47,800 nucleotides of DNA from a virus. The stretch lies in the UHGV virus genome UHGV-0066790, one strand, 5' to 3'. Below the pieces are notes generated by a model. It saw only the letters and a program-made list of their open reading frames with translations. It searched no databases and was not told the origin of the DNA. Shown piece by piece: positions 2,114 through 36,680 of this stretch (within the stretch, counting starts at the first letter, position 1; each line of letters starts with the position of its first letter). Made by a program: the position numbers and the translations under genes.

Positions 2114-2558
2114 ATGATCAAGCTCACTGTTGAAAGTCTGTATGGCGGCGGAGCCGTGGAGCGGTTCCACGGAGAACTCGAAAAAGCCATTGCTAACATC
2201 GTTGACCCGAACACCCCTGCCAAGAAGCCTCGCAAGGTCAATCAAGTACGCCTCGAACGTGACCACCACCGTTGAAGCCAACACCGAAGATGACGGCGTT
2301 ACGCAGGCCGTCACCGTCAAGAAGGGCATTGCCGGGAAGGGAGTCGATATCCTTCCCAACCCCGTCAGACTGCGCCCCTATCGTACCTTTACCGAAGTCG
2401 AACAGCCTGAAAGCTCTTTCGTGTTCCGTTGCAAAGACAATGACGGCGTGAAGTTTGCCCTTGTTGAGGCTGACGGCGGCGCATGGAAGGGCGAGGCCAT
2501 GAAGAACATCAAGGCGTTCATGGAAGAGCACGTCCCCGGCTTGAACGTCATCGCGTAG
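2114..2558 (+). pseudogene. Hypothetical phage protein with an apparent +1 frameshift near 2265
   Basis: Strong RBS AAGGAGAACCTTT then ATG at 2114. That frame (MIKLTVESLYGGGAVERFHGELEKAIANIVDPNTPAKKPRKVNQVRLER) stops at about 2273. The +1 frame continues protein-like (TTTVEANTEDDGVTQAVTVKKGIAGKG...) to 2558, and the start of the second frame looks like an antisense artefact. Confidence 0.4.
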
Positions 2559-2568
2559 CACCCCACGC

Positions 2569-2596
2569 CCCGCCCTCCCCCGGCGGGGCTTTTCAT
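2569..2596 (+). terminator. Rho-independent terminator
   Basis: GC hairpin CCCCGCCCTCCCCCGGCGGGG followed by CTTTTC. Confidence 0.5.
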
Positions 2597-2638
2597 ACCC
2601 CAAACCGTGGGCCGCGCATACGAATCACGCGGGATGAT

Positions 2639-2872
2639 ATGCAACAAGTCACAAAAGAAAGCGTAAACTGGCATGAGTACGCACCAGCAAGAAATTGTGA
2701 GAATTGCCAGTATGGTAGACGTATTGATGTATATCAGTGCGTCTACCGCTGTGAGCTTAACGATTGGAATACCGGAGCACTGTCAATCTGCGATAAATGG
2801 ACGAAAAAGGCGGAATGGCCAAATGGGAAAGGCGGCTCACGTGGGTGTGGGTCGCCTTCTTTCTTTGGATAG
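2639..2872 (+). CDS. Small Cys-rich hypothetical protein
   Basis: ATG at 2639 (MQQVTKESVNWHEY...). CxxC..C pattern (CENCQYG...CVYRC). Confidence 0.45.
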   Translation: MQQVTKESVNWHEYAPARNCENCQYGRRIDVYQCVYRCELNDWNTGALSICDKWTKKAEWPNGKGGSRGCGSPSFFG

Positions 2873-2923
2873 TATGGATGGTGTGCAGGGGCGCGGCTGC
2901 ATGAACAACGCGCGGGGTAACAT

Positions 2924-3226
2924 ATGCTGACGGAACAGGAAAGGAAGTGGCTGGAGTTTCGGAAGTACAGAAAGGCACCATGCGGAGATGAAACGCATCA
3001 TTGCGTAGGATGCTTGGTAAGGTGTGGGTGCTCTCTCACTCCGGATTGGATAGACGCCGCCGAGTTCGAAGCACGTGTATCACGGTGTATCGCTGGGAAT
3101 GCATCAGAACTAGATATGATATCTAACAACTTGCAGTTCCTTGATGGTTTCAAAGCCAAAAGCCTAGCGTGGTACATCCTGCGGGAAGCGCGCATTGCCG
3201 TTGAAGAGGAGATGGACAATGAGTGA
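2924..3226 (+). CDS. Cys-rich hypothetical protein
   Basis: 100-aa ORF with CGDETHHCVGCLVRCGC cluster. Confidence 0.45.
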   Translation: MLTEQERKWLEFRKYRKAPCGDETHHCVGCLVRCGCSLTPDWIDAAEFEARVSRCIAGNASELDMISNNLQFLDGFKAKSLAWYILREARIAVEEEMDNE

Positions 3227-3428
3227 AACCTCCCTTGAATCCATTATGCAGTGCTCAAAAGAGGCAATCGCGCGGGCGTATATGTGCCGGGAAACGTTTG
3301 AGACACAACAAGAATGTCCTGAAAGATGTCCCAACGGATCGTGTGTGATAGGAAGAGGTCTTTGTTGGGCCGTAACCCCACAGGACTGGGAAAAGGTGCT
3401 GAACAGCGTGCAGGAGGAGAGAGGATGA
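3219..3428 (+). CDS. Small Cys-rich hypothetical protein
   Basis: Internal ATG with GAGGAG RBS. MSETSLESIMQCSKEAIARAYMCRETFETQQECPERCPNGSC. Overlaps the previous stop. Confidence 0.35.
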   Translation: MSETSLESIMQCSKEAIARAYMCRETFETQQECPERCPNGSCVIGRGLCWAVTPQDWEKVLNSVQEERG

Positions 3429-3772
3429 CCGCACAGGAATGGATTGACGAACTGGAAAGGCTGAGGGAGGCGGCGATCATGCCGCCCTATTATCTCAGGA
3501 AGAAACTCTTTTTTGGAGAGGATGAAGAAGAATACTACATCACCGATAAAGAAGAGCGCATCATCTGCCGGATGAAATACATGTCCACAGAACCGGACAA
3601 CGCCGCATACATCGTAGCCGCGTGTAACGCCGTGCCGAGGCTGGTGGAGATGCTCAGGATTGCTGTGAGTCTTATTGAAGCTCAGAATGCACAGAGAGCA
3701 CGCAAAGGAGAAAGAATACCAGATATCGACGTGATGCAGTTGCTTTTTACCATGACGGAGCCGAAAGAATGA
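3425..3772 (+). CDS. Hypothetical protein
   Basis: ATG at 3425 after GGAGGAGAGAGG. Translationally coupled to the neighbouring genes. Confidence 0.45.
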   Translation: MTAQEWIDELERLREAAIMPPYYLRKKLFFGEDEEEYYITDKEERIICRMKYMSTEPDNAAYIVAACNAVPRLVEMLRIAVSLIEAQNAQRARKGERIPDIDVMQLLFTMTEPKE

Positions 3773-4329
3773 TCACCACCGCAGAACTCGCCCGCATCCG
3801 GGCCGCCGCCATTGGCGACATGCTAGGAGACTCCAAGGAGCTCGACAAACTTGGTCCGGCGGCTACGGTTTTCAGGCTGTGCCGGGAATTGGAACTAGCT
3901 AGGAAACACGCCGTCACCATGTCAGAAGTGGCAGCCGCAGCGTGGGGCGGGGAAATCCCGTCACCGTTGCCCGGTCATGTTTCCAGTGAAGAAAAAATGG
4001 AGGAAATGTTTGACCGCCTGAATTGCCCTTTCTGCGGAGGGTCTGGTCACGTTGACGACTGCGACGAGATACAGATCAAACTCCTGCGAGAGCTCAAAAT
4101 AGTTCAACTCTATTCTGTACTGAATCGTCTTGTTTCTTTCGCGGACAATCAAATTTGCAGACATGAGGAAACGCATCGAGGAGGACTTATCTGGGAGATA
4201 TGCGATTTCTGCGGGACAAAGTGGGCCGATGATGAAGGTGGAAAGCCTGAGTTTGTGGAACCAAAAGAGATAAGTGATGCTTACTGTGCTCTTGTGGAAA
4301 TAGAAAAAATCATCGGAGAAAGAAAATGA
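3769..4329 (+). CDS. Hypothetical zinc-ribbon protein
   Basis: 186 aa with CPFCGG...C and CDFCG motifs. ATGA overlap with the upstream gene. The 3' half is AT-rich. Confidence 0.5.
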   Translation: MITTAELARIRAAAIGDMLGDSKELDKLGPAATVFRLCRELELARKHAVTMSEVAAAAWGGEIPSPLPGHVSSEEKMEEMFDRLNCPFCGGSGHVDDCDEIQIKLLRELKIVQLYSVLNRLVSFADNQICRHEETHRGGLIWEICDFCGTKWADDEGGKPEFVEPKEISDAYCALVEIEKIIGERK

Positions 4330-4676
4330 ACCTAACAAAAGAAGAGCGCGACCAGTGGCGCGAAAGACTGTTATCCTCATACACATGTTTCGATGCAGAA
4401 CACGCGACTTTCACCATCCGGCTACTTAATGCGCTGAACCAAGCCGAGGAAGAAATAGCACGGCTGGAGCAAGAAGTATTTTTCTGGCGTGAAGAGACTA
4501 AAGACGTGCGAGAAGTCTTCACCAGACAGCTAGGCTATAAAGACGCAGAGATAGCACGGTTTGAGAGAGAGTTGCACTGGCTGGCGACTATAGCGTTTGA
4601 CGGGACGGCGGGGATTTATGACAGTCCAGAAAGGCTCATGGAAGCCGCACGCGAGGCCGTGGAGAAAGGCAGATGA
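4326..4676 (+). CDS. Hypothetical protein
   Basis: 116-aa ORF with ATGA coupling to both neighbours. Confidence 0.5.
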   Translation: MNLTKEERDQWRERLLSSYTCFDAEHATFTIRLLNALNQAEEEIARLEQEVFFWREETKDVREVFTRQLGYKDAEIARFERELHWLATIAFDGTAGIYDSPERLMEAAREAVEKGR

Positions 4677-4990
4677 ACACCACAGTACAAAAAGCCATTC
4701 AAGATGGGATGAAAGCAACTGGGATAACACAAACTGAACTAGCCATTGTTTTACGCAGCAGAGCGCGTGCTTCCGAGATTATTAATGGGAAAAGGGATCT
4801 AAGGAGGACTGAACTGCTTGTACTTTCATATCTGCTCCATATCCCGCTTGAAACGCTGATGCCTCCTCTTAGTGAAGAGGATAAGCTGCATATCGACTCG
4901 CTTATTGCTTGGGAGAGAAAACTTCAAGAGACAAGATATATAAAAAAAAGAGCTTCTAAACGGAGTAAGAAATCATGTCCGAAGAACTGA
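4673..4990 (+). CDS. XRE-type helix-turn-helix DNA-binding protein
   Basis: HTH signature GITQTELAIVLRSRARASEIINGKRDL. Confidence 0.55.
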   Translation: MNTTVQKAIQDGMKATGITQTELAIVLRSRARASEIINGKRDLRRTELLVLSYLLHIPLETLMPPLSEEDKLHIDSLIAWERKLQETRYIKKRASKRSKKSCPKN

Positions 4991-31856: not shown

Positions 31857-32603
31857 ATGTACAAAAGCATCATGGTGTTTCTGCTGGCCGCGCTGGTTAT
31901 GACGTCCGAGGCGCAGGCCGCGGGCAACGAATGGAACGATTCGTTCAGCAAGGCCAAGAAGACGCTGGAACGGCAGGTCTATTATGACCATCGGATCACG
32001 CTCTACTGCGGGGCGGCGTTCGACGAGAAGAAGAACGTCACCCTGCCGGAGGGTTTTACTGCCGCGAAGCACGAGAAGCGGGCCGGGAAGGTGGAATGGG
32101 AACACGTGGTCCCCGCCGAGAACTTCGGGCAGGCTTTTCCGGAGTGGCGCGAGGGGGACGCACAGTGCGTGGACGCGAAGGGGAAGGCATTCAAGGGCCG
32201 CAAGTGCGCGGAAAAGGTGAACCGGGAATACCGCCTCATGCAAAGCGACATGTACAACCTCTATCCGGCCATCGGTGCGGTCAACGCCCTGCGCCAGAAT
32301 TACAACTTCCAGATGCTGCCCGGCGAGGAGCCGGATTTCGGAAGCTGCGGGATGAAGATCGCCGACCGCAGGGCCGAGCCGCCCGTCCGGGCGCGGGGAC
32401 AAATTGCCCGGACCTACAAGTATATGGCCGACGCCTACGCCCCGCGCTACCGCATGAGCCGCCAGCAGACGCAGCTCATGGACGCATGGGACAAGATGTA
32501 TCCGGTTGATGCGTGGGAATGCACGCGGGCCAGACGTATTGAAAGACTACAAGGTAACGAGAACCCTTTTGTGAAGGAAAGATGTCAAGAAGCAGAACTC
32601 TAA
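31857..32603 (+). CDS. endA: Secreted endonuclease I (EndA family)
   Basis: Signal peptide MYKSIMVFLLAALVMTSEAQA. Blocks VEWEHVVPA, SDMYNLYPA, EPPVRARGQIARTYKYM and SRQQTQLMDAWDKMYPVDAWECTRARRIERLQGNENPFVKERCQ closely match E. coli EndA. RBS AGGGAGGT. Confidence 0.85.
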   Translation: MYKSIMVFLLAALVMTSEAQAAGNEWNDSFSKAKKTLERQVYYDHRITLYCGAAFDEKKNVTLPEGFTAAKHEKRAGKVEWEHVVPAENFGQAFPEWREGDAQCVDAKGKAFKGRKCAEKVNREYRLMQSDMYNLYPAIGAVNALRQNYNFQMLPGEEPDFGSCGMKIADRRAEPPVRARGQIARTYKYMADAYAPRYRMSRQQTQLMDAWDKMYPVDAWECTRARRIERLQGNENPFVKERCQEAEL

Positions 32604-32617
32604 CTCTTTACATTCAT

Positions 32618-35600
32618 TTATATTCTCCTTCCCATACGTGGCTGATTGAGGATGGCGGGGTTGATGCACATGGGCCGCTTGGTATCGAAATCACGCAGCG
32701 CCTGTGTTGTGGCGTCCACTTGGTCGTCGTGGGGCGCACCGGGGAACTGTGTCAGTTCCGCGACGTACTCCCGCGCCCACGGGCAATGCTCAGGGTGCGG
32801 GAGCAGGACGTTCCCGGCCTCGAAGAACGTGGTCACGGCATGGGCCCGGGCCGTCTTGCTGCCGTCCGGCTCCACGGGGATGATACCGGGCACAGCATGT
32901 TTCAGCGCGTCGATAACCGCCGGGCCGTTGGCCTTATCCTCCACCAGCTTACGGGCTGCGCCGGGCCATTTAGCGGCGAGCGCCCGGAACGCGGCGACCG
33001 TATCCGTAAATCCCATGCGCCGCCGGACCTGATCGAGGAGGTAGCGGTCGGCCCCCTTGCGGCCCCACACCTGCCCCACAACAAAGTCGGTATCGTCGCC
33101 GTCTTTGAACGTCATATCCCACGAGATAAGGAGCTGGTCGAACTGCTCCGGAAGGTCTTTGGGGAGCCAGAACCGCAGCCACTCGGATTTGAATATGGCG
33201 CCGCCGTCTGGCGTAGGCCGCTGCTGGTACAGGGCTTCCCAGTCGCGTGTGCCGAGGGCTTTCTTAATGGCAAGAAGCTGCTCCAACGGGTAGCGTTCAG
33301 GGTGTAAGGCTTCACCTGCCCTACGGTGCAGCTCGTCTTCCGTTGCGATGGCGGGGAAGTTCACTACGCGCCAGTGGTCGCCCTCCCCCCGTGCGGCGGC
33401 CTCAAGCAGCCGCCCTGAGAGGTCAGCCATGTGCCAGCGAGTGTTGATGATGAGCACCCCTCCACCGGGCGCGAGGCGCGTGTACAGCGTGGACGTGTAC
33501 CAGTCCCAGACGTTCTGGCGGATGGTCGGGGAATCGGCGGACGCCCGGTCCTTGAACGGGTCGTCGATGATAGCGCAGTTGTGGACAAGGACACCGCCGG
33601 CAAAGAAGTTCTGATTACGTGCTACTTGGATATCAACAAAACGGCGTGCTGTTCCGTATATTCGCGCAATGTTGGCAATATGTCCCGCTTGTACTGTTCT
33701 TCTTTCATGCCGTGCAAGATCCTGTGGCACTTGCTGCACAGCGTAATCAAGTTTGTCGCAACATTGTTGATCGGAATAAGATCCATGTGATGAACCTCCA
33801 ACCGTGTTTCCTCCTTGCCACATAGAACACAACGATGCTGATCCCTGTCTAAAATCAAAGGCCGAAACTGTCGGAATGCCCGCGCAGAGTGCACCTGTTC
33901 CCGCAAGGGAGTCATGCCGTGACGGTATCGGGGATTCCCCTTGCCAGACATCAGAATAGAGTGTGCAATTTCGCTGCACCGCTTGCTGCAATACTTGGCA
34001 AAAATACCGCGTCCCCTGTGGGCAGACATAAAGAGCTTGTTGCAGATAGGGCAAATTTTTTCTCTGGGCTGATGCTCGACAGGGACCTGGCTCGGCTTCT
34101 TGAATTTTGCGGCACATTCCGGGCAGGTCTTTGCCCCTTTGGTTCTCCCTGTGTGTTTGATGATCCGTCCACAACCGGGGCACGTCTTGCTGTTCTTGAC
34201 TGCATGATGGGCACAAGAATGTTCCTTGCAGCAGTAGAAATCTTTCATCCCCTTCCTGATATTTTTGGCCACCACATAAGCCGGCCTCACAAACTCCAGG
34301 CCACACCAGGCACAAGATAGGATCACCCGTGGCAATTGATGATGCAGGGGTATATTCCCCCCGTGAAAAGATCGGATGGTTTCCTGTAACTTCAAGAACT
34401 CTGCCAAGGGCATCGCGTAATCGGTAGCTTTCTTCTGCATATCGATCCTTTACCGCTATCACTATATCAGTTTCAATTTCCCCCGTTTGATGATTGTATG
34501 ATAGCACGTTATCCCCGACTTGTAGGGTCTCGATAGCGCGATCTCCGTCAGGAGTCGCAATTTGTGTTCCAATGACAACGCATTCCGCACCCATGCCCGT
34601 GATGCCGCCGCCCACGCCAGCGGAACGGTAGCAGCCAGCGTGCCCCACCACCTCGAATATGTCCGAATTGCGGAGGTAGGAGCCGTTCCCGACTGTGCGG
34701 ATGTTCTTGCCGTACAGCGCCGTGCCGGGAAAAAGTTCCCGATATTCCGGGCTGTCGATGACGCGCTGCACGTCGCGGTTCATGCGCGAGGACAGGTCGG
34801 CGGCGTAGCTTGTGGAGATAATGGAGAGATCGGGGTAACGGCCCAAGGCGTAGGCCGGGAAACGGCGGGAGGCCAGCTCGCTATTGTGGGTTATCGTAAG
34901 GTGTTTGCCAACTAAATATAAGCCATCTGGACTATCCACCTGAATACAATTCCCCATTTTAGGCGACTCTAGCGCTCGTACACATTTGATGGATACGCGC
35001 CGACGCAGAGAAGAAAACGTTTTATTAACTTTTTTCCGTTCAAGTCTGCACGGGACAACTACACCGGAAAAGAAAAATGACACCACATAAACCTGTGACT
35101 TATTTTTAATCGTTCTTTCCCGATTATCTAGTGCTGGGATATTTGTATGCGCTACAAACCCGCATAGCATGGCCAATTCTTCTACATCATGCGCTAACAG
35201 CTCATTGGATGTTGTAAAACGATATCTGTTTGTCTTTCTATCAAAATGACCATCCGTATCAATAAGTCCAGCAAGCAAGTCAAGCCTGTTTTCTAGGCTA
35301 TCATGCTTGTACTCATTAGGAATATGTTTATTTTTTAGCAGATCAGCATCTTTTAGAGCCTGCGAAAATATATTTCTTCTATTTTTCACGCCGCTGGCAA
35401 ATGAAAAAGTTTCAACTCCAGTATCTCTATGCACCCATGTTCCAGTTATTGGCACACCTAGTCGTTCAAACTCCATTTTGACGACACAAGCGTCATCAGG
35501 AGCCATGTTTATTCTGGGCGCGATTGACGTTCCATCACCTAACCACACGCCCAAAACGTATGGCGGGATAACGTGTTCTACGGCAGGCCATTGGGGAGCA

Positions 35601-36151
35601 TCAGCTGTGTCCACCTGATACAAATACCTGTGCCCTCTGGTGTCTGGGATACCGCTATCCAGCTTCCTAAGCGCCTTAGTTTTTTTGCTTGGCTCCACAA
35701 AGTATCGTGTCTCAACTGTTCTATATCCGGGTTTAGTCCTGTCATACACCCGCCACTCATGATCAAGGTGCACATCTATTATGTCGCCATTGGTAAAAAC
35801 AACAGAATGAGTGGCAAAATTTTTCTCGCCCACAGCAACAACCCTCACAGGTTTGCCACTTGGGTGAAATACATAATCACCAACCTTAAGCGCACCATGA
35901 GTTTTCCACCCATCAACCGTCAAAACAGGAGTATCATCAGCGCACAGTTTCCCATGTCGCGGCGGCATGGTCAGCATGAGGCGCGGGGAACGTCCGGCCA
36001 CGACATCGGCAAGGAAGGCGTCCAGCTCGGAACAGATTTCCTCATGCACCCATCCCATCTTGTAGCCGGGCATGGTGTAGCGCACGAAGGCCGCGAGGCA
36101 ACTCCGGGCCAGCGCCTTCCTGATGTCGGCAAGGATGGATGGGCTACTCAT
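32618..36151 (-). CDS. terL: Terminase large subunit interrupted by two inteins
   Basis: Exteins: residues 1-69 (…MPPRHGKL, P-loop), 424-523 (…GHAGCYRSAGVGGGITGMGAE), 859-1177 (CAIIDDP... nuclease domain with HDDQVDATTQAL). Confidence 0.8.
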   Translation of the reverse strand: MSSPSILADIRKALARSCLAAFVRYTMPGYKMGWVHEEICSELDAFLADVVAGRSPRLMLTMPPRHGKLCADDTPVLTVDGWKTHGALKVGDYVFHPSGKPVRVVAVGEKNFATHSVVFTNGDIIDVHLDHEWRVYDRTKPGYRTVETRYFVEPSKKTKALRKLDSGIPDTRGHRYLYQVDTADAPQWPAVEHVIPPYVLGVWLGDGTSIAPRINMAPDDACVVKMEFERLGVPITGTWVHRDTGVETFSFASGVKNRRNIFSQALKDADLLKNKHIPNEYKHDSLENRLDLLAGLIDTDGHFDRKTNRYRFTTSNELLAHDVEELAMLCGFVAHTNIPALDNRERTIKNKSQVYVVSFFFSGVVVPCRLERKKVNKTFSSLRRRVSIKCVRALESPKMGNCIQVDSPDGLYLVGKHLTITHNSELASRRFPAYALGRYPDLSIISTSYAADLSSRMNRDVQRVIDSPEYRELFPGTALYGKNIRTVGNGSYLRNSDIFEVVGHAGCYRSAGVGGGITGMGAECVVIGTQIATPDGDRAIETLQVGDNVLSYNHQTGEIETDIVIAVKDRYAEESYRLRDALGRVLEVTGNHPIFSRGEYTPASSIATGDPILCLVWPGVCEAGLCGGQKYQEGDERFLLLQGTFLCPSCSQEQQDVPRLWTDHQTHRENQRGKDLPGMCRKIQEAEPGPCRASAQRKNLPYLQQALYVCPQGTRYFCQVLQQAVQRNCTLYSDVWQGESPIPSRHDSLAGTGALCAGIPTVSAFDFRQGSASLCSMWQGGNTVGGSSHGSYSDQQCCDKLDYAVQQVPQDLARHERRTVQAGHIANIARIYGTARRFVDIQVARNQNFFAGGVLVHNCAIIDDPFKDRASADSPTIRQNVWDWYTSTLYTRLAPGGGVLIINTRWHMADLSGRLLEAAARGEGDHWRVVNFPAIATEDELHRRAGEALHPERYPLEQLLAIKKALGTRDWEALYQQRPTPDGGAIFKSEWLRFWLPKDLPEQFDQLLISWDMTFKDGDDTDFVVGQVWGRKGADRYLLDQVRRRMGFTDTVAAFRALAAKWPGAARKLVEDKANGPAVIDALKHAVPGIIPVEPDGSKTARAHAVTTFFEAGNVLLPHPEHCPWAREYVAELTQFPGAPHDDQVDATTQALRDFDTKRPMCINPAILNQPRMGRRI
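33578..34582 (-). mobile_element. Intein 2 (Hint domain) in the terL Walker B site
   Basis: Begins CVVIGTQIATPDG, block B TGNHPIF, ends FVDIQVARNQNFFAGGVLVHN before Cys. The central region in the terL frame is low-complexity. Confidence 0.6.
33622..34440 (-). CDS. HNH endonuclease with Zn-ribbon repeats, encoded in a different frame inside intein 2
   Basis: Multiple CxxC pairs. C-terminal HNH motif CVLCGKEETRLEVHHMDLIPINNVATNLITLCSKCHRILHG. Frame is +1 relative to terL. Confidence 0.65.
   Translation of the reverse strand: MQKKATDYAMPLAEFLKLQETIRSFHGGNIPLHHQLPRVILSCAWCGLEFVRPAYVVAKNIRKGMKDFYCCKEHSCAHHAVKNSKTCPGCGRIIKHTGRTKGAKTCPECAAKFKKPSQVPVEHQPREKICPICNKLFMSAHRGRGIFAKYCSKRCSEIAHSILMSGKGNPRYRHGMTPLREQVHSARAFRQFRPLILDRDQHRCVLCGKEETRLEVHHMDLIPINNVATNLITLCSKCHRILHGMKEEQYKRDILPTLREYTEQHAVLLISK
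34883..35944 (-). mobile_element. Intein 1 (Hint + double LAGLIDADG homing endonuclease) in the terL Walker A site
   Basis: Begins CADDTPVLTVDGW, contains LGVWLGDGTS and LLAGLIDTDGHF, ends ...VGKHLTITHN before Ser. Confidence 0.7.
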
Positions 36152-36680
36152 GATCCGGCGTTTTGAAGGCTTCCTTCGTCAGGCGAAGCAGCTCGTCCGG
36201 GGAGAGGCGTGAGAGATCCACCGGACGCTGAGAGAGGGAACCGTCGGATGAAGTGTGATCCAAGGCGGTTTTGTCCACGATGCCCCACGCCTTGCGCTCT
36301 CCCTCCTGCCGGATCTTAATCGTCTCGGCGGTAATCTTGGCGAGCTTGGCCTTGTCGAAGCTGCCTTCGGACAACGCCTCATCCATAATGGCCTGATGCC
36401 GATCCCACTCCCGCTGATGGCGGGTGATGACGGCGGCCTTGGCTTCGGCGGCGCGGTCCAAGGCTTCGGCCTTTTTTTGAGGGTTGCAGCCTGCAACCAC
36501 GCCCGCAACCTTGGCCTCTGCCATGCGGTTCACGGTGCCGGAAATATCCTGCACCCAGCCTTCGGCCCGGATGCGCTTTTGGATGGCCGTCCGGCTCACA
36601 CCGTACCGCTTGGACAGATCGGACTGGCTCGCCCCCACTTCGTATTCGGCCCGGATGGATTCCCAATCAAATCGTGCCAT
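36144..36680 (-). CDS. terS: Terminase small subunit
   Basis: N-terminal HTH SQSDLSKRYGVSRTAIQKRIRAEGW. Overlaps the terL start by 8 nt. Confidence 0.6.
   Translation of the reverse strand: MARFDWESIRAEYEVGASQSDLSKRYGVSRTAIQKRIRAEGWVQDISGTVNRMAEAKVAGVVAGCNPQKKAEALDRAAEAKAAVITRHQREWDRHQAIMDEALSEGSFDKAKLAKITAETIKIRQEGERKAWGIVDKTALDHTSSDGSLSQRPVDLSRLSPDELLRLTKEAFKTPDHE

Follow-up and report, generated by a model that had tools for sequence, protein, structure and literature searches.

An HNH endonuclease lying out of frame within the intein of the brucellaphage terL gene, which codes for the large terminase subunit, has been on record since 2015. In actinobacteriophages, inteins whose homing endonucleases are out of frame or antisense, many of them in terL, have also been described (10.1101/2025.01.02.630785); they comprise endonuclease VII-like 'frame 3', antisense LAGLIDADG and antisense VSR-like classes, and invasion of the inteins by free-standing nucleases was proposed. 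Here we analysed the second of two inteins (intein 2) in the terL gene of virus genome UHGV-0066790, the window being the whole stretch of 47,800 nucleotides. An original prediction for this DNA had placed an HNH homing endonuclease in a different reading frame from the splicing domain of intein 2, and had offered two explanations: two indels in a decaying or mis-sequenced intein, or a free-standing HNH gene nested inside a mini-intein. The second is supported by our data, since the arrangement is conserved across distant phages and both frames are under selection. Very probably, intein 2 is an intact mini-intein with a separate, functional HNH gene nested in its +1 frame, likely a homing endonuclease; our confidence in the exact start codon and in the homing function is lower than in this overall explanation. 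The elements concerned are the following:

32618..36151, minus strand: terL, large terminase subunit gene, a single continuous open reading frame (ORF) of 1177 codons with two inteins, taken from the ORF list
33578..34582, minus strand: intein 2, 335 amino acids, Cys1 to His-Asn, adjoining the Walker B motif IIDDP on its N-terminal side
34313..34582, minus strand: Hint N-terminal lobe (Hint-N), intein residues 1-90, with block A (CVVIGT) and block B (TGNHPIF), in the terL frame
33686..34312, minus strand: spacer in the terL frame, 209 amino acids, stop-free, not conserved as a protein, the alternative reading of the HNH gene
33578..33685, minus strand: Hint C-terminal lobe (Hint-C), intein residues 300-335, with block F (VDIQVARNQNFFA) and block G (VLVHN)
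33622..34440, minus strand: HNH endonuclease ORF, 272 amino acids plus TAG, in the +1 frame relative to terL
33976..34314, minus strand: tandem zinc-ribbon region of the HNH protein, C43 to C155, with CxxC, CxxxC and CxxxH pairs, the cysteines being invariant or nearly so in 50 homologues
33712..33831, minus strand: HNH beta-beta-alpha-metal core (CVLCG...EVHHMD...NN...NLITLCSKCHRILH), covering Pfam HNH residues 204-243

The boundaries predicted for intein 2 proved exact: the Cys1 codon lies at 34582..34580, the His-Asn dipeptide finishes at 33578 and the +1 Cys follows at 33577..33575. The motifs of a class 1 intein were present, namely Cys1 (in block A, CVVIGTQ, kept in all 10 aligned homologous inteins), TxxH (TGNHPIF), the block F Asp (VDIQV..NFFA) and VLVHN followed by the +1 Cys. 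A Pfam search of the terL product returned Terminase_6N, Terminase_6C, Intein_splicing, Hint_2, PT-HINT and LAGLIDADG_3, with LAGLIDADG in the first insertion and Intein_splicing, Hint_2 and PT-HINT in the second. After deletion of the linker, intein 2 matched the Spl DnaX mini-intein (7cfv) over residues 25-142 (E 3e-6) and the gp41-1 intein (6qaz) over residues 4-142. From these alignments, intein 2 is predicted to be a complete Hint domain, its N and C lobes aligning end to end with solved mini-inteins. The centre of the intein in the terL frame, said in the original prediction to be 210 low-complexity residues, comprised 209 residues rich in Q, G, L, S and C, and a Pfam search of this spacer (34312..33686) gave no domain. 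The GC content of intein 2 was 49.9%, compared with 64.0% for the exteins. Two other architectures were considered and rejected. A split intein or fractured gene was discarded on the grounds that terL is one ORF and that its frame is open in all homologues examined. A group I or group II intron carrying an HNH ORF was discarded on the grounds that an Rfam scan of 32500..36300 gave no intron family at E<=1 (two chance-level matches were returned), that the open frame is selected and that Hint blocks flank the ORF.

The HNH ORF is offset from terL by one nucleotide ((36151-34440) mod 3 = 1), as had been predicted, and it overlaps Hint-N by ~43 codons at its start and Hint-C by ~21 codons at its end. 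The protein matched Pfam HNH (PF01844) with an E-value of 1.5e-4 and 22.3 bits (cut-off 21.4). Seven residues were invariant across 50 aligned homologues (C204, C207, H217, H218, N230, C235 and H239), and the window protein retains every one of the invariant residues, including the HNH and zinc ligands. An AlphaFold2 model built with the 50-homologue alignment had a mean predicted local distance difference test score (pLDDT) of 85.3. Foldseek gave local matches of the HNH core to EcoKMcrA (6ghc, probability 1.00, 2.3-2.5 A over 75-79 columns) and further local matches of the model to the Cap5 HNH domain and the Gme HNH nickase; a whole-chain Foldseek search gave no match at E<=1e-3, the model being a string of small domains. 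A sequence search of the PDB matched the IscB HNH domain, the phage HNH endonuclease 5h0m and McrA. Taken from sequence and model, the ORF thus appears to encode an HNH-fold protein with intact catalytic and zinc residues, a predicted nuclease.

The same insertion site (...HN/C-IIDDP, just before Walker B, the slash marking the junction) and the same +1 offset were found in at least 10 other diverged copies. A nested +1 HNH was present in all 41 Brucella phage records (tblastn and protein searches); in one of these (L001), the GenBank HNH coding sequence (CDS) at 3136..3822 lies within terL (2313..4859) at +1. Further nested +1 HNH inteins were found in Ralstonia phage RS-CA1, Gordonia phage Clown, Synechococcus phage S-EIVl and a Streptomyces prophage, as well as in metagenomic contigs whose nested HNH shares 83%, 63%, 40% and 37% identity with that of the window. 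For Gordonia phage Clown, the Pfam HNH match was obtained solely in the +1 frame, and this HNH is homologous to that of the window. The terL frame was open across the HNH gene in every nested copy, and the eleven close-family lineages checked at the DNA level, a comparison with homologous inteins that the original prediction had proposed as a search for in-frame HNH, were all +1. Homologues of the window HNH were found at 83%, 63%, 43% and 37% identity, and a profile search gave 123 family members. The opposite outcome, a terL-frame centre with genuine homologues and an HNH frame with none, was thus not observed: the terL-frame centre gave just a 'shadow' similarity, which was lost in distant lineages. 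Ten full inteins of 329-457 amino acids aligned well in the Hint blocks (A, B, F and G), whereas their spacers aligned poorly. A profile scan of genome contigs with the HNH alignment yielded no confirmed relative, the prophage copies having been found via the protein database.

Several of these relatives showed features of their own. The penultimate residue of the intein, usually His, is Leu in S-EIVl (L014, NVLN/C) and Ser in L015 (LVSN/C). On contig SRR30303828_352875 (L006, 1361..1834), a second terL intein (VFVIA/CMTGDTPVL...) lies ~40 codons downstream of the +1 HNH intein, and its region carries an Endonuclease_7 gene that is read at +2 relative to terL, so that one terL gene holds two different out-of-frame nucleases. 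The HNH match in Brucella phage EF4 (MT002975.1, 3140..3746) is divided into two pieces that lie under two CDS annotated 'terminase large subunit'; the terL gene of this phage may carry an interruption or a frameshift. A chromosomal copy in Peribacillus frigoritolerans (L017, JBFEAK010000001.1, 2047413..2053246) has a frameshifted HNH C-terminus and is followed by a 56-amino-acid fragment with a weak Intein_splicing match and by a DUF3696 fragment; this copy looks decayed and possibly lies in a different host gene.

The two frames of the window were then compared with chance expectation by synonymous-codon permutation of the HNH ORF (3000 runs, with the HNH protein and its codon usage held fixed). 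A mean of 12.65 stop codons was expected in the terL frame under permutation and none was observed; no permutation out of 3000 left the frame open, and the coexistence of two open frames is therefore not due to chance. The third frame over the HNH ORF contained 11 stops, and the terL frame contained none in any of the 8 lineages tested. A stop in terL needs a T-ending HNH codon before an AAN, AGN or GAN codon; in the window, T-ending codons occupied 0 of the 67 positions before such codons, compared with 60 of 205 elsewhere, and the sum for the 8 lineages was 0 of 528. The pattern of substitutions was obtained from a codon-position comparison of the window with L003, the homologue with 83% HNH identity. 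At terL codon positions 1, 2 and 3, the differences numbered 2, 2 and 15 in the part that is Hint-N only (34441..34582, 5' of the HNH ORF), 82, 21 and 18 in the centre, where terL position 1 is HNH position 3, and 2, 0 and 10 in the part that is Hint-C only; in the two short overlap zones they were lowered at all three positions. This shift along the intein shows that purifying selection acts on the terL reading in the Hint lobes and on the HNH reading in the centre. Between the window and L004, the centre was 30% identical in the terL frame and 65% in the HNH frame, and in distant lineages the spacer similarity was gone (E 0.01-0.3), while the HNH frame gave E-values of 1e-23 to 1e-53 across phyla. 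The only constraint detectable on the spacer is the absence of stop codons. The locus is thus a clean natural case of same-strand overlap over ~270 codons in which one frame is kept for its protein and the other is only kept free of stops, with short zones at both ends of the overlap that are constrained in both frames.

These results bear directly on the first explanation in the original prediction, according to which sequencing or assembly error or recent decay introduced two indels that displaced an in-frame HNH, the true or ancestral protein being Hint-HNH-Hint in one frame. In-frame HNH inteins are known (10.1101/2025.01.02.630785) and a G homopolymer does lie near the upstream boundary. 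However, the +1 offset recurs in the diverged copies, which include isolate phages sequenced by different laboratories; the terL frame is open in the window against a permutation probability of P<1/3000, and in 8/8 lineages; stops in the HNH frame directly 5' of the ATG leave no in-frame fusion to Hint-N there; and the G-run is not conserved. Stop avoidance, the codon-position pattern and the lack of conservation of the G-run refute an indel or decay artefact, and we assign this explanation practically no probability.

The region upstream of the HNH ORF contains two further elements:

34446..34451, minus strand: Shine-Dalgarno-like AAAGGA, 5 nucleotides before the ATG at 34440..34438
34357..34362, minus strand: run of six G on the coding strand (six C on the plus strand), not a conserved feature, no role assigned

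Just 5' of the ATG, the HNH frame is blocked by a cluster of stops, and it opens 3 codons before the ATG. Shine-Dalgarno-like sequences were found in four lineages among those examined: L003 has AAGGA with a 5-nucleotide gap to the ATG, as in the window, L006 has GGAG with a 7-nucleotide gap, and the Brucella phage has AGGAG followed after 3 nucleotides by a GTG that lies further downstream, its HNH frame opening just 7 codons before this GTG. Internal initiation on the terL transcript at AAAGGA-N5-ATG is most likely the way in which HNH is expressed, as the most economical reading of these signals. The G-run exists as predicted, at 34357..34362 rather than at about 34353-34358; the role proposed for it, that of the likely frame switch point, did not hold up. 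The run is G6 in the window, G5 in L003 and G4 in L004, the two nearest relatives, and is absent in the 8 other lineages (8/11), so it is not a site of frame switching; with a Shine-Dalgarno-like AAAGGA and an ATG of its own after the stop cluster, the HNH ORF can do without such a switch. A conserved frameshift site at the G-run was accordingly rejected. Programmed +1 frameshifting of ribosomes on terL, at or near the G-run, would yield a fusion of Hint-N to HNH and would agree with the homopolymer in the window and with an HNH that is on the same strand and at +1 in every lineage. We regard it as very unlikely, given that no conserved slippery sequence was found, that several stops close the HNH frame until shortly before the ATG, and that a Shine-Dalgarno-like motif precedes the ATG in the window and the GTG in the Brucella phage, where the frame is open for just 7 codons before the start.

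The distribution of intein 2 was examined in 80 close terL relatives from IMG/VR (C-extein 69-99% identical), of which 73 loci were classifiable (rows read by eye). The site was empty (GMGGH/IVIVDDPF) in 72 of the 73, and intein 2 was found in one contig; the empty site of phiR18 reads GMGCH/MLIIDDPF. In that contig, IMGVR_UViG_3300045988_166960 (L008), the intein is identical to that of the window at 1005 of 1005 positions and the flanks are otherwise 91-97% identical, the first flank mismatches lying at 34634 and 33557. This delimits the following tract:

33558..34633, minus strand: tract 100% identical to L008, made up of the intein plus 51 nucleotides of N-extein and 20 nucleotides of C-extein, a putative co-conversion tract

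Conversely, the exteins of L011 are 91-93% identical to those of the window, and its intein is a different allele with just 49-66% nucleotide identity. From empty to occupied sites, the codons beside the junction change from GH to AE upstream and from IVIV to CAII downstream; the empty-site DNA reads ...GGCATCACGGGCATGGGCGGGCAT/ATCGTCATCGTCGACGACCCGTTCAAGGAC... and the spliced-equivalent sequence ...GGTGCGGAA/TGCGCTATCATC... Intein 2 is sporadic and moves independently of its flanks, which is the signature of a homing element.

A different function for the nested protein also has to be weighed, namely that HNH is a terminase accessory nuclease for genome end cleavage that is not, or no longer, involved in homing and is kept in terL for co-expression. 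The HNH profile matches the structure of phage HNH endonuclease 5h0m, a terminase gene is immediately preceded by a free-standing homologue (P0032, L101), and a functional link was speculated upon for brucellaphages (PMC4422536). Yet the 72 of 73 close terL genes that are empty lack the intein together with its HNH (HNH elsewhere in those phages was not looked for), and packaging in this phage group is therefore independent of the nested HNH. The sporadic distribution and the identical intein of L008 in diverged flanks argue against HNH as a required packaging factor, and together with divergent inteins in near-identical flanks fit a selfish mobile element. A packaging role is thus unlikely. 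The intein of L007 differs from that of the window at one base (34313); the change is silent in terL and replaces the zinc ligand Cys43 of HNH by Tyr, which may inactivate that copy. This substitution at a nearly invariant ligand and the frameshifted Peribacillus copy are what would be expected if the HNH ORF were a dead relic, its frame residually open in an intein that is inherited only vertically. Such a relic is highly improbable, since central substitutions concentrate at HNH third positions (82 vs 21 and 18), all invariant catalytic and zinc residues are kept in the window, the HNH frame remains recognizable across phyla and the 100% identical tract in L008 indicates recent transfer.

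We therefore return to the mini-intein with a nested HNH gene. On this explanation, intein 2 would be an intact class 1 mini-intein (N-lobe of 90 and C-lobe of 36 amino acids) whose loop, the usual place of a homing endonuclease, holds a separate zinc-ribbon HNH gene in the +1 frame. Ribosomes translating terL would pass through the HNH gene in frame 0, producing the ~209-amino-acid spacer, and intein 2 would then splice out and restore the Walker B region of TerL. From the same late transcript, HNH would be translated on its own, most likely starting internally at AAAGGA-N5-ATG (34451..34438). The protein would most likely serve as a homing endonuclease that cuts intein-less terL near ...GGCATGGGCGGGCAT/ATCGTCATCGTCGACGACCC... 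during co-infection, and repair of the cut empty allele would copy the intein together with short flanks. We infer protein splicing because the motifs are intact and terL is essential; the start codon used, the nuclease activity and the target site are likewise put forward from the sequence.

Several observations weigh against this explanation or parts of it. The start codon of HNH is not certain and evidently varies between lineages: L004 has the homologous ATG without an obvious Shine-Dalgarno sequence, the Brucella, Gordonia and Synechococcus copies appear to begin further downstream, and the ATG falls in the conserved Hint 'Y-A' dipeptide, so that its conservation could be a by-product. 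Over the first ~45 HNH residues, selection acting on Hint block B may account for part of the conservation and of the high pLDDT. Among the nearest relatives of the HNH domain, solved or free-standing, are phage HNH proteins associated with terminases. Finally, the spacer is presumed to be disordered, and a single-sequence AlphaFold2 model of the terL-frame intein (pLDDT 31 throughout, Hint lobes included) is uninformative on this point.

The history of the arrangement was assessed from the two protein parts. Among cultured phages, the closest relatives of Hint-N are those of the Brucella, Ralstonia and Gordonia Clown phages, which make up three of the four cultured groups with a nested HNH; the fourth, Synechococcus phage S-EIVl, was not among the matches of the Hint-N search. 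Pairwise identities of Hint-N and HNH were correlated (rho 0.55, p 5e-4, for 36 non-independent pairs), which, together with the nearest Hint-N relatives, fits one ancestral nesting followed by co-divergence. The ~40 closest HNH clusters share a C-terminal tail (SMTSxW...TSLQ..YSSTTA; rows read by eye), and in nested copies this tail is the +1 reading of the Hint blocks VYDLQVE...NFFA...VLVHN. It is possible, and we propose this tentatively, that a single ancient nesting created a unit of Hint plus HNH that spread through phages of Proteobacteria, Actinobacteria and Cyanobacteria, with the out-of-frame state selectively maintained, always at +1 and never as an in-frame fusion, and that free-standing HNH proteins with a 'Hint-shadow' tail may be escapes from such inteins. 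If this is true, separate translation could allow a low nuclease level that is set independently of TerL and could prevent a multi-zinc-ribbon protein from becoming part of the splicing precursor, and the free-standing escapes would reverse the usual direction in which a free-standing homing endonuclease invades an intein. Two free-standing HNH homologues without an open overlapping frame, L100 (P0009) and L101 (P0032), one of which lies just upstream of a terminase gene, still carry a tail resembling the +1 'shadow' of Hint blocks F and G; they may descend from intein-nested copies, or the tail may be a genuine part of the HNH protein.

Two neighbouring elements were also recorded:

34883..35947, minus strand: terL intein 1, an insertion of 355 amino acids in the Walker A motif (PPRHGK/.../SELAS)
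31857..32603, plus strand: ORF of 248 amino acids between terL and the portal gene, matching Pfam Endonuclease I (PF04231, E 1.5e-29)

Intein 1 (GC content 43.8%) matched LAGLIDADG_3 and Hom_end in Pfam. It is missing from L007, L008, L010, L011 and 78 of 80 close relatives and present in L025 and L028. It begins with Leu instead of Cys (LCADDTPVL...), and has a His-Glu-Trp block B, a Cys in block F (GNCIQV) and a Thr before His-Asn (ITHN), thereby resembling the Trp-Cys-Thr signature of class 3 inteins. The Endonuclease I ORF has a hydrophobic, signal-peptide-like N-terminus (by eye). In L011, terL and the portal gene are just ~18 nucleotides apart, so the ~856-nucleotide Endonuclease I block is an insertion in the phage of the window; L008 has a different insert of ~1 kb at this place.

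Among known systems, the closest to the window is gp08 ('putative HNH endonuclease') of Brucella phages Tb and Pr (Perisivirus), which shares the terL site (...ILVHN/CVIIDDP), a homologous intein, the +1 frame and an open terL frame, with 43% HNH identity (E 4e-51). The Brucella HNH differs in that it is shorter (228 amino acids), has a GTG start located downstream of Hint-N and is missing both the N-terminal helix module and the first CxxC; moreover, the intein is present in all sequenced brucellaphages, whereas it is sporadic in the phage group of the window. The RefSeq record of Brucella phage Pr (NC_019447.1) describes gp08 as 'intron-encoded' and notes 'intein present' for terL. The former appears to be a misannotation, as the homologous region of the window has no intron signature and terL is open. 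Automated annotation and intein surveys can thus mislabel such elements, and gene callers here split terL or dropped the HNH.

The actinobacteriophage inteins of the 2025 preprint (10.1101/2025.01.02.630785) resemble the window in that the splicing blocks enclose a homing endonuclease ORF of another frame or strand, the host frame is open and there is evidence that transfer is ongoing. The same-strand out-of-frame class reported there is endonuclease VII-like and HNH is listed solely in-frame, whereas the window has an out-of-frame HNH; in the supplementary table, the Gordonia Clown intein is listed as 'HNH' without the 'OOF' tag given to others. The second intein of L006, with Endonuclease_7 in +2, corresponds to the 'frame 3 endonuclease VII-like' arrangement of that work. 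The ShiLan domain in DNA methylases of mycobacteriophages (PMC11855218) is likewise an overprinted HNH in an in-frame, mobile-looking insertion with a stop-free host frame. However, that insertion has no splicing domains and is presumably retained in the host protein, and no ribosome binding site was found for its HNH, whereas the window HNH is flanked by a complete Hint domain and preceded by a Shine-Dalgarno-like motif. Conventional HNH inteins also combine an intein with an HNH-family nuclease as the presumed mobility enzyme, but there the intein polypeptide includes the nuclease as a domain, and in the window the nuclease would be a separate polypeptide. In fractured genes (Dassa et al. 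2009, PMC2677866), a nuclease gene of the free-standing type lies between the N and C parts of an intein, as in the window, a likeness that bears on the model in which a homing endonuclease invades a mini-intein; there the host gene is in two ORFs joined by trans splicing, whereas terL of the window is one continuous ORF.

This family is a tractable one in which to test how the association between homing endonucleases and inteins arose: cultured members exist among the phages of Brucella, Ralstonia, Gordonia and Synechococcus, the empty alleles are just a few per cent away from the occupied ones and the putative target is defined. The window element belongs to a known but rare class of inteins with an out-of-frame homing endonuclease, that of the brucellaphage terL type. 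As far as the literature shows, it is new that the Brucella-type element is a family across phages of several bacterial phyla, that the frame offset is always +1, and that selection signatures of stop avoidance and frame switching are demonstrated for it.

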